From the IMG/VR virus record IMGVR_UViG_3300008459_000008, positions 42,240-106,239 of that record: DNA of 64,000 nucleotides, one strand, 5' to 3'. The DNA comes from a virus. How positions within the stretch are numbered: the stretch's first letter is position 1; the number at the start of each line of letters is the position of its first letter. Of this stretch, positions 60,452-62,808 are shown in pieces. A program made the translations under genes and the position numbers. The notes below the pieces were generated by a model. It had not been told where the DNA came from. It saw only the letters and a list, made by a program, of their open reading frames with translations, and made no database searches.

Positions 60452-60916
60452 TTAATTTTTTTGATTAAATGGGTCATTCTTTAGACTATCAACTATTTTT
60501 CTGATCCTTTCTTTCATGGTATTGCCATATTCTTTAGGTAATTTTTTTTGAAAAATAATTTCATATTCGTGGCAAAGTAGATCCCTTTCCTTTTGATTTA
60601 GTTGTTGAGCCACTTCATCAAGTCTCAATTTATAGGATTCTCTTACAATTGTTGATGCTAAAAGATTAATAGATGGGGCACCAACAGTCCTCAAAGGTAT
60701 GTTGATAATACCATCATCGGATTTTGGGATGGTATCAGCAGAAATCAAAATTTTATCACAATAATCACTCACAAGCACGAAAGATGTAGCATCAGATTCT
60801 TTGATCAAATCAATCGCAGCTTGAATTTTCAAAGAAAACGTTTCATCGACTATAACTTTAAACTGAGCATTTGAGATATTTACTAGAAAGATAAAGGGTA
60901 GAAATAATTTTTTCAT
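60452..60916 (-). CDS. Secreted hypothetical protein
   Basis: Start moved to ATG 60916 (MKKLFLPFIFLVNISNA-Q). Confidence 0.6.
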   Translation of the reverse strand: MKKLFLPFIFLVNISNAQFKVIVDETFSLKIQAAIDLIKESDATSFVLVSDYCDKILISADTIPKSDDGIINIPLRTVGAPSINLLASTIVRESYKLRLDEVAQQLNQKERDLLCHEYEIIFQKKLPKEYGNTMKERIRKIVDSLKNDPFNQKN

Positions 60917-60949: not shown

Positions 60950-60957
60950 CAAATGTA
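60950..60957 (-). promoter_or_regulatory. Bacteroidota sigma-A-type -7 element
   Basis: TACATTTG on the minus strand, with TTTG upstream. Confidence 0.55.
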
Positions 60958-60992
60958 AAAATATTATTTTGATATACAAATAAATATCAAAA

Positions 60993-61154
60993 TTAATTAC
61001 AATGAAAAAGGTCACCATCGGTGACCTTTTTATCTTTTTTTCGACAATATTTCTTTTTTGAAACAACAACCCTCGTTGTGAAACGAGCATCATTACCCGT
61101 ATCCCTAATCAAAAGGTCTCGTTTTATTTTTTTGAAATTAATTGTCTGTTTCAT
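60993..61154 (-). CDS. ArfA-like alternative ribosome-rescue peptide (53 aa)
   Basis: MKQTINFKKIKRDLLIRDTGNDARFTTRVVVSKKKYCRKKDKKVTDGDLFHCN; D..F..RV...KK.Y.RK.K core; terminator inside the CDS. Confidence 0.6.
   Translation of the reverse strand: MKQTINFKKIKRDLLIRDTGNDARFTTRVVVSKKKYCRKKDKKVTDGDLFHCN
61005..61031 (-). terminator. Intrinsic terminator inside the ArfA-like CDS
   Basis: AAAAAGGTCACC-GAT-GGTGACCTTTTT; the U-tract ends 9 nt before the TAA. Confidence 0.75.
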
Positions 61155-61323
61155 TTTTTGATTTGTTAATTTTCTGCCCCACTTTTTCGAAAGAATCCTC
61201 AAGAATGTAGAGGCACAACATAGTTGTGACCATATCAGTAACACCAAGAAGATAGTACATAAAAGCCCCAATCAGCCATACAAAGTGACCGTAAATTTTA
61301 ATAAAGTTTAGTATATTTTTCAT
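61138..61323 (-). CDS. Small membrane protein
   Basis: Two hydrophobic segments; overlaps the ArfA-like start by 17 nt. Confidence 0.55.
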   Translation of the reverse strand: MKNILNFIKIYGHFVWLIGAFMYYLLGVTDMVTTMLCLYILEDSFEKVGQKINKSKNETDN

Positions 61324-61327
61324 AATA

Positions 61328-61335
61328 CAAATATA
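61328..61335 (-). promoter_or_regulatory. Bacteroidota sigma-A-type -7 element
   Basis: TATATTTG on the minus strand, with TTTG ~20 nt upstream; 4 nt before ATG 61323. Confidence 0.65.
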
Positions 61336-61365
61336 CGACTTTTTTTGATAATGGTTACAAAAAAT

Positions 61366-61839
61366 TTAATATTTCCATTCAATTTTTTGAAGAGACTTAA
61401 ATGGTTTTTTAGTAACTCTTTCTAAAATGGCTATTCCATAACAACCTTTGACTACTCTTTTCTCTTCGTCGAGAACTTGTTTTGTTTCAATCATTAAAAA
61501 GTAATTTTCAGTCCTTTTCATAGGCTGATATCTTAACATATAATCATCCTTTGTTATTAGTTTTTTTGTTAAAACGTGTCTATTTAAAGTGATCAAAGAA
61601 ACTTTCAAGGTATCTCCTAAATCTTTTGATTGAAATAAAAACGCTAATTTGGTTTTGTAACTAACATCGTTTAATTTGACGTAAGTCGTTTGACCAGATT
61701 TTACTTGAAAAACTACTTTGTCATATAAAACATAAGGGATTATATCAATACTATCCAATTTATTAGATAGTAAATCAAAACACTGTGAGTATAAGGTGTT
61801 TGTAATTAAAAATAATGTTAAAAATAAAAAAACCCTCAT
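61366..61839 (-). CDS. Secreted hypothetical protein
   Basis: Signal peptide MRVFLFLTLFLITNTLYS-QC. Confidence 0.65.
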   Translation of the reverse strand: MRVFLFLTLFLITNTLYSQCFDLLSNKLDSIDIIPYVLYDKVVFQVKSGQTTYVKLNDVSYKTKLAFLFQSKDLGDTLKVSLITLNRHVLTKKLITKDDYMLRYQPMKRTENYFLMIETKQVLDEEKRVVKGCYGIAILERVTKKPFKSLQKIEWKY

Positions 61840-61864
61840 AATCTATTTATTAAATTATGAGGGT
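61826..61864 (-). terminator. Terminator after the tRNA; its 3' arm contains the ATG of 61366..61839
   Basis: Minus strand ACCCTCATAAT-TTAATAAATAG-ATTATGAGGGT-TTTTTT. Confidence 0.7.
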
Positions 61865-61878
61865 GGGATTTTGGTGTG

Positions 61879-61984
61879 TGGGCCCTGTTGGATTCGAACC
61901 AACTACCTGCGGTTTATTTCTTCCAAGTGAATAAATACTATTCAAAAATGAGACCGCTGCTCTGACCGATTGAGCTAAGAGCCC
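61879..61984 (-). tRNA. tRNA(CAU), probably Ile2, with a 32-nt insert/intron in the anticodon loop
   Basis: GGGCTCT/AGGGCCC acceptor stem with A73; D-arm AGCTCAATCGGTCAGAGC; anticodon stem GCGGT/ACCGC; CT-CAT then 32 extra nt (61916-61947) then AA; T-arm GTTGG-TTCGAAT-CCAAC; no adjacent encoded CCA. Confidence 0.85.
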
Positions 61985-62060: not shown

Positions 62061-62702
62061 ATGTTTTATACTGTTTACAAAATTACAAACAAAATAAATA
62101 ATAAAATTTATATTGGTGTTCATAAAACAAAGAATTTGGATGATAATTATATGGGATCCGGTAATAAAATTAAATTAGCAATAAAAAAATACGGAGTTGA
62201 AAATTTTGTCAAAGAATATCTCGCAATATTTGATAATCCTGAAGATATGTTTGATATGGAATCCAAAATTGTGAACGAAGAATTTATTTCTAATAAAGAA
62301 ACTTATAATATGACTATTGGTGGAAATGGATCCTGGGATTATGTAAATAATAACTTATCGATGGAAGAAAAAATAAATCACGGCAAGTGGTTGAGTGATA
62401 ATTATGCATCAAAGGGAGGTTCTTGGAAGAATTATGAAAAAAGAATTAAGGTTTGGAGTGTAGTTCCACTCGAGATTAGGCAGGAAAATGCCAGAAAAAT
62501 GGGTTACAAATTTGGTGGACAAAACAAATTCGAAAAAATAGAAATAGACAAAAGATTGGGATTGATTAAGGATATTGATCTGACAGAATTTGGTTGGGTC
62601 AAAAAGGTTGCAGATATTCTTCAAATATCACATACACAAGCCAAAAGATTTATAAAGAAGTATTATAAGGGGGAATATTATCAACGCAAAAGTCCAAGTT
62701 GA
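62061..62702 (+). CDS. Free-standing GIY-YIG homing endonuclease (Seg-like)
   Basis: YTVYKITNKINNKIYIGVH...YMGSG...AIKKYG.ENF...E...YNM..GG; C-terminal HTH-like segment; inserted antisense between two tRNA genes. Confidence 0.85.
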   Translation: MFYTVYKITNKINNKIYIGVHKTKNLDDNYMGSGNKIKLAIKKYGVENFVKEYLAIFDNPEDMFDMESKIVNEEFISNKETYNMTIGGNGSWDYVNNNLSMEEKINHGKWLSDNYASKGGSWKNYEKRIKVWSVVPLEIRQENARKMGYKFGGQNKFEKIEIDKRLGLIKDIDLTEFGWVKKVADILQISHTQAKRFIKKYYKGEYYQRKSPS

Positions 62703-62709
62703 TATTGTG

Positions 62710-62785
62710 TCGGCAAGATGGGGATCGAACCCATATGCACCTATTACCCTTTCGACACTTTATAAGAGTGAGGGGATACTCGCCG
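62710..62785 (-). tRNA. Atypical tRNA-like RNA with UAU anticodon and no canonical D-arm
   Basis: Acceptor CGGCGAG/CTTGCCG with A73; U8-A9; anticodon hairpin CACT-CTTATAA-AGTG; T-arm ATGGG-TTCGATC-CCCAT; only 6 nt in place of the D-arm and a 21-nt 3' connector. Confidence 0.7.
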
Positions 62786-62800
62786 AAGTGATTTGTTATA

Positions 62801-62808
62801 CAAAGATA
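62801..62808 (-). promoter_or_regulatory. Bacteroidota sigma-A-type -7 element driving the tRNA-like gene
   Basis: TATCTTTG on the minus strand, with TTTG ~20 nt upstream; 15 nt before the RNA. Confidence 0.7.

Follow-up and report, generated by a model that had tools for sequence, protein, structure and literature searches.

Comparative evidence identifies a 53-aa open reading frame (ORF) in the analyzed stretch of DNA (hereinafter the window, the final 64 kb of an IMG/VR virus record that spans 106 kb and has a completeness estimate of 42%) as a genuine gene, one that belongs to a small family of basic mini-proteins absent from the catalogs. The carriers of this family are Bacteroidota-type phages and some uncultured freshwater bacteria. 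We consider it somewhat probable that the gene codes for a real small basic protein, probably a nucleic-acid-binding one, whose C-terminal codons overlap the terminator at the end of its transcription unit in one lineage through terminator turnover. The original prediction had viewed the same ORF as an ArfA-like ribosome-rescue factor made from a non-stop mRNA; an ArfA-like function of the 53-aa protein appears rather unlikely.

The window is AT-rich, with no Pfam family for most of its proteins, and the gene is part of the following arrangement:

61366 to 61839, minus strand: 157-aa secreted-type protein of cluster c10, a recurrent upstream neighbor of family c0 (neighbor clustering)
61328 to 61361, minus strand: Bacteroidota-type promoter-like motif TTTG-N22-TATATTTG, 5′ of the two-gene unit (pattern search and sequence)
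61138 to 61323, minus strand: 61-aa hydrophobic ORF, the first cistron (92% identity in L003, 84% in L006)
60993 to 61154, minus strand: gene of the 53-aa basic protein, family c0 (homologues, third-position substitution bias, AlphaFold2 model)
61005 to 61031, minus strand: intrinsic-terminator hairpin (A5, 7-bp G+C core, 3-nt loop, T5) in codons 42–50 of the 53-aa gene
60993 to 60995, minus strand: TAA stop of the 53-aa gene, 9 nt past the T tract and by prediction not included in terminated transcripts
60950 to 60980, minus strand: separate promoter-like motif TTTG-N19-TACATTTG of the next gene (pattern search; conserved in L003/L004)
60452 to 60916, minus strand: next gene, for a 154-aa protein whose N-terminus resembles a signal peptide, outside the unit (88% identity in L003/L004)

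The 53-aa ORF is present as first described, running on the minus strand from the ATG at 61154 to the TAA at 60995–60993 and including the core that had been quoted for it. The Bacteroidota promoter pattern TTTG-N18-23-TAnnTTTG occurs at 14 sites in the window against 5.2 expected, a count reached in 0 of 100 shuffles, and two of these sites bracket the unit (61361–61328 and 60980–60950). The host-type promoter claimed for the 53-aa ORF corresponds to the first of these, a Bacteroidota-type motif, but the 61-aa ORF comes first; as this upstream promoter drives the conserved 61-aa ORF first, the 53-aa gene comes second in a two-gene unit, its start overlapping the 3′ end of the 61-aa ORF by 17 nt. 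The second site bears out the further claim of a separate promoter for the next gene. No Pfam or PHROG family was found for the 61-aa ORF and, more generally, PHROGs and Pfam provided none for the 53-aa ORF or its neighbors, with the sole exception of a GIY-YIG endonuclease. Likewise, megablast of 6 kb against GenBank phages and a query of IMG/VR with the neighbors of the 53-aa gene gave no matches. The linkage of c10 to c0 recurs in the window and in the family loci L003, L006, L007 and L011, with c10 identities of 51–85%.

Upstream of the unit, the window contains a tRNA(CAT) at 61879–61984 on the minus strand (Rfam tRNA, 57.9 bits) that is interrupted by a 32-nt insert after the anticodon and is detected by ARAGORN solely with introns allowed. 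A GIY-YIG homing-endonuclease gene at 62061–62702 on the plus strand (PHROG 314, E = 1.8e-40; region 62061–62808) sits between this tRNA and a weak tRNA-like match at 62710–62785 on the minus strand, whose 26.3 bits are under the Rfam threshold. At L003:1023–1173 there are an intact tRNA-Ile(TAT) and an adjacent tRNA-Met(CAT) only 3 nt apart, and hence the endonuclease in the window looks like an insertion. Past the interrupted tRNA, a 14-bp terminator-like hairpin at 61832–61864 on the minus strand overlaps the ATG at 61839 of the 157-aa gene, its T tract encoding the start of the signal peptide of that protein. The family copies of the window, L003, L006 and L028 show a loose association with tRNA regions; the divergent member at L028:420–1263 is found in a tRNA cluster with a Met tRNA upstream and Tyr, Asp, Tyr and Asp tRNAs downstream.

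A word-indexed search recovered six close clusters of the 53-aa protein at 73–96% identity, and a profile search of 1.8 billion representative proteins recovered 24 clusters (at 50% identity) of 44–123 residues. The family loci comprise 2 from IMG/VR and 35 from JGI metagenomes, mostly from lakes. When about 58 distinct sequences are aligned, the frame is seen to be open down to ~35% identity across differing genomic contexts. This 58-sequence alignment has invariant I10, R12, D22 and R24 within a core of the form VNY-x-KIKR-x4-RDT-x2-D-x-RFTTKV, which is followed by a Lys-rich tail. Substitutions between the window and L003, L005 and L006 fall mainly at third codon positions; against L006 they number 3, 2 and 16 at the first, second and third positions, with 14 synonymous and 4 non-synonymous changes.

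An AlphaFold2 model built from 30 sequences (mean pLDDT 72.6) has a single helix at residues 7–19 and an extended tail; Foldseek with this model found no PDB match, a single-helix model being uninformative in such a search. In the ESM Atlas only viral hypothetical clusters were recovered, one of them with DUF7230 on 23% of its members, but Pfam gave DUF7230 no better than E = 0.58, and this for a single member of the family. A search of 401 Pseudomonadota genomes gave no family match. We also considered an identity as a ribosomal protein (bS21 and similar), which was rejected as there is no Pfam match. Based on the modeled amphipathic helix, the strand-prone RFTTKV segment and the Lys/Arg tail, nucleic-acid binding is the most likely role of the protein, and the ribosome would be a plausible target.

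Neighbor clustering and scanning show that many loci of the family have a phage-like context, being stretches of small unknown ORFs. Eight further loci are chromosome-like (L008, L009, L012, L016, L020, L021, L025 and L026) with a conserved arrangement of a phosphoribosyltransferase (hpt), OMP decarboxylase (pyrF) and a convergent 821-aa ABC transporter. There, the family gene is preceded by a cassette of two ORFs, one of 53 aa that contains Cys and one of 65 aa that is disordered and has the C-terminus NPNSRSSY-x-GIFG. The L007 copy, on a contig of 464 kb, has IspD and a DoxX protein as neighbors, together with the 157-aa secreted neighbor seen in the window. The occurrence of the family in both phage-like and chromosome-like contigs indicates that it is not phage-specific.

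The 12-bp hairpin with a U5 tract that had been reported inside the coding sequence was recovered at 61031–61005, with a 3-nt loop, 5 G–C pairs and a T5 tail; 9 nt (61004–60996) separate it from the stop, as originally stated. It folds with a minimum free energy of −15.8 kcal/mol (z = −4.7 versus shuffles), and its build, namely an A-tract, G+C core and T-tract, is the same as that of the other terminators of the record. When the 106-kb record was surveyed by script for strong terminators, 11 distinct sites emerged, of which that of the 53-aa gene is the only one with the associated stop downstream of the stem; at the other strong sites the stops of long ORFs lie 21–43 nt upstream of the 3′ end of the stem. 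Intrinsic terminators usually release RNA 7–9 nt past the G+C stem. With this release distance, the 3′ end of the transcript is predicted at ~61003–61001, which would leave an mRNA without a stop codon. The residues past that point are only His-Cys-Asn.

The position of the terminator in homologues, chosen beforehand as the point on which a conserved non-stop design would stand or fall, speaks against such a design. The terminator is 5′ of the stop in just 3 of 38 loci (the window, L003 and L004, which form one lineage), the other 35 being without this layout, and its position is unconstrained family-wide. L003 and L004 are near-identical in the gene region and keep the hairpin, there with a T7 tract. 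Five further protein clusters at 79–94% identity retain the amino-acid sequence KKVTDGD and, by that token, probably have the same layout. Given that the layout is unique among the strong terminators of the record and is kept in these further clusters, it is no one-off sequencing accident.

The sister loci L005 and L006 are 92–100% identical over the first 37 residues and have one Lys codon fewer. In L006 a 6-bp hairpin is retained via a compensatory change and the T tract is gone, and L005 has only a degraded remnant of the hairpin. Both loci have a different, stronger terminator (−16 to −19 kcal/mol), with the stop as its 5′ edge, and are followed by a downstream gene other than that of the window. 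The replacement of both the terminator and the downstream gene indicates that the 3′ end of the gene is a mosaic junction. Elsewhere, terminators lie 3′ of the stop (L001, L027 and L024), the stop falls within an AT-rich stem (L012 and L016), or there is no terminator and the next gene begins within a few bases (L015, L017 and L030–L037); the chromosome-like copies have ordinary stops. Judged across these loci, non-stop feedback control as a family-wide property fails.

Hence, the reading we prefer is one in which transcription would start at the promoter at 61361–61328 and proceed through the 61-aa membrane ORF and the 53-aa gene to the intrinsic terminator. In the lineage of the window this terminator falls within the last 12 codons, such that many transcripts would end ~2–3 codons short of the stop. 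Most likely, the terminator came to lie there as a by-product of its turnover at a mosaic junction, on an unconstrained C-terminus; it probably does not represent a conserved feedback device of the ArfA type.

The likeliest of the rivals, though we regard it as unlikely, posits a lineage-restricted, ArfA-like, release-factor-dependent rescue factor made from a self-truncated non-stop mRNA, the product of which would be tmRNA-tagged and removed unless trans-translation is saturated. In gamma- and betaproteobacteria, ArfA (YhdL; PF03889) serves as an alternative ribosome-rescue factor that depends on RF2. Like the window protein, it has ~50 residues, a short helix, a strand-prone F-x-x-[KR]-V and a Lys/Arg tail with Y-x-R, so that size and basic tail fit this reading; and, as in ArfA, the in-frame hairpin of the window’s lineage should yield a stop-less mRNA. 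Indeed, the window, L003 and L004 have the terminator 5′ of the stop, as do the five further clusters judging by amino-acid sequence, and this reproduces the layout of arfA and brfA, with a terminator inside the reading frame and an mRNA without a stop (PMC8012679). However, neither the sister clade nor the chromosomal copies have this layout, and most phage copies lack it as well. Moreover, the ArfA read-through product has a hydrophobic destabilizing C-terminal extension, whereas read-through in the window protein adds just 2–3 residues and no such tail.

Direct searches for ArfA were negative. Membership in the ArfA family was not borne out by its Pfam model: PF03889 gave no match at E ≤ 10 for the window protein, 30 family members or the six-frame translation of the genome, while the E. 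coli positive control scored 89.7 bits. The family profile matched no ArfA or BrfA chain among PDB chains at E ≤ 10, and BLASTP against E. coli ArfA (from NC_000913.3) found nothing at E ≤ 100. To compare profiles, we used ArfA alignments of 116 enterobacterial sequences, of sequences from 30 diverse Pseudomonadota genomes, and of 15 sequences from 17 viral IMG/VR loci; a contig scan with the enterobacterial alignment yielded near-identical Enterobacteriaceae only. In hhalign, the 58-sequence family gave a probability of 3% against enterobacterial ArfA (P 0.015, score 15.2), 4.9% against diverse cellular ArfA (P 0.008, score 15.9), 9.2% against cellular plus viral ArfA (P 0.0035, score 19.2) and 14% against viral-only ArfA (P 0.002, score 20.1). 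The last two alignments are collinear over 42–48 columns, with a 3-residue gap at the GKG of ArfA, and column-shuffled profiles matched the observed score in 1/150, 2/250 and 3/250 cases (~1%). Thus, hhalign returns as its top local match the alignment with ArfA that was originally drawn by eye, but the match is statistically non-significant; a P of ~0.01 is moreover inflated, since the ORF was picked for its ArfA-like look.

Two further observations on the alignment point in different directions. On the one hand, hhalign pairs ArfA F25, V29, Y39 and R41 with residues that the family conserves, and F25 with the following strand is the segment that docks on RF2 (PMC8012679); the correspondence makes a functional analogy possible. 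On the other hand, KGKGS(Y) in the tail is part of the segment of ArfA that enters the mRNA channel, and KGKGSY is present in 30/30 cellular and 15/15 viral ArfA sequences extracted (45/45) as opposed to 0/58 family members, which have KK-x-Y with the 3-residue gap in its place and lack an HMM match; membership in ArfA is therefore unsupported. The phyletic distribution also disfavors it: the promoter motifs of the window are of the type found in Bacteroidota, a group without known ArfA, the protein being recorded in 0 of 1,956 Fibrobacterota–Chlorobiota–Bacteroidota genomes (PMC11633108). No tmRNA or RF-1-domain gene was found in the 106-kb record, which is weak evidence as the record is only ~42% complete.

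Other rescue factors provide similarly partial parallels. BrfA (YqkK) of Bacillus subtilis also has a rho-independent terminator 5′ of the stop of a small basic gene (PMC8012679, PMC6881298), a resemblance displayed by the window’s lineage only. Unlike BrfA, the family lacks a match in the PDB at E ≤ 10, although the PDB should include the BrfA chain 6SZS (PMC8012679), and the Lys-His motif common to ArfA and BrfA is unconserved in the family and missing from the basic tail of the window protein. ArfT of Francisella tularensis resembles the family in being tiny and basic with a Lys-rich C-terminal segment, and resembles most of its members in that it is not regulated via a non-stop mRNA (bioRxiv 10.1101/465609); in a comparison by quoted motif alone, its KKGGSTNKK (10.1101/465609) is missing from the family, and nothing ties the two families together.

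True viral homologues of ArfA do exist in IMG/VR, on 17 contigs (L150–L166) matched by tblastn. They are ~40–60 residues long, several having only ~40 residues and ordinary stops, while in L154 and L164 the stop is directly preceded by a hairpin and T-rich tract. Like the present family they are small phage-borne genes, some with ordinary stops, but unlike it they have the full KGKGSY and a tblastn match to ArfA. Given that viral ArfA genes often have ordinary stops and that ArfT is not controlled in this manner, the missing non-stop design counts against feedback control rather than against rescue activity as such. One may conceive a broader version, which we likewise treat as a doubtful possibility: the family would be a very diverged or independent release-factor-recruiting rescue factor of Bacteroidota and their phages, with the F-plus-strand segment docking the release factor and the Lys-rich tail probing the empty mRNA channel, and the lineage of the window would have acquired non-stop autoregulation in the style of arfA and brfA.

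Somewhat less plausible still is that the in-frame hairpin acts as a translation-sensitive attenuator: a close-following ribosome would mask its 5′ arm, resulting in read-through and a normal stop, while uncoupled transcription would lead to termination, with non-stop products as a minor side effect. The hairpin lies fully within translated codons 42–50, its T5 tract is shorter than the T6–T9 of the other terminators of the record, and the stop is only 9 nt further on, all of which fit such a device. However, with a promoter motif of its own in front of the next gene, read-through would serve no obvious purpose, and transcription–translation coupling is unestablished in Bacteroidota. Finally, that the 53-aa ORF is no gene at all, with the hairpin merely terminating the transcript of the 61-aa gene ~105 nt past its stop, might be entertained for a short ORF that overlaps the end of the 61-aa ORF and is devoid of Pfam or PHROG families, but is rejected as highly improbable, being contradicted by the open frame in 58 distinct homologues to ~35% identity in varied contexts and by the third-position substitution bias.

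In returning to the reading we prefer, a small basic protein with a terminator that turned over into its last codons, we see a cautionary case: an in-frame terminator may be the product of one lineage only and, taken alone, is no evidence of ArfA-type control. We know of no release-factor-dependent rescue factor in Bacteroidota. Further small, hard-to-find rescue factors have been anticipated by reviews (PMC8012679), and if the family were to be a release-factor-dependent one in Bacteroidota, it would constitute a fourth independent solution, and a phage-carried one. As it stands, the result offers a defined, testable small-protein family common to phages and cells.
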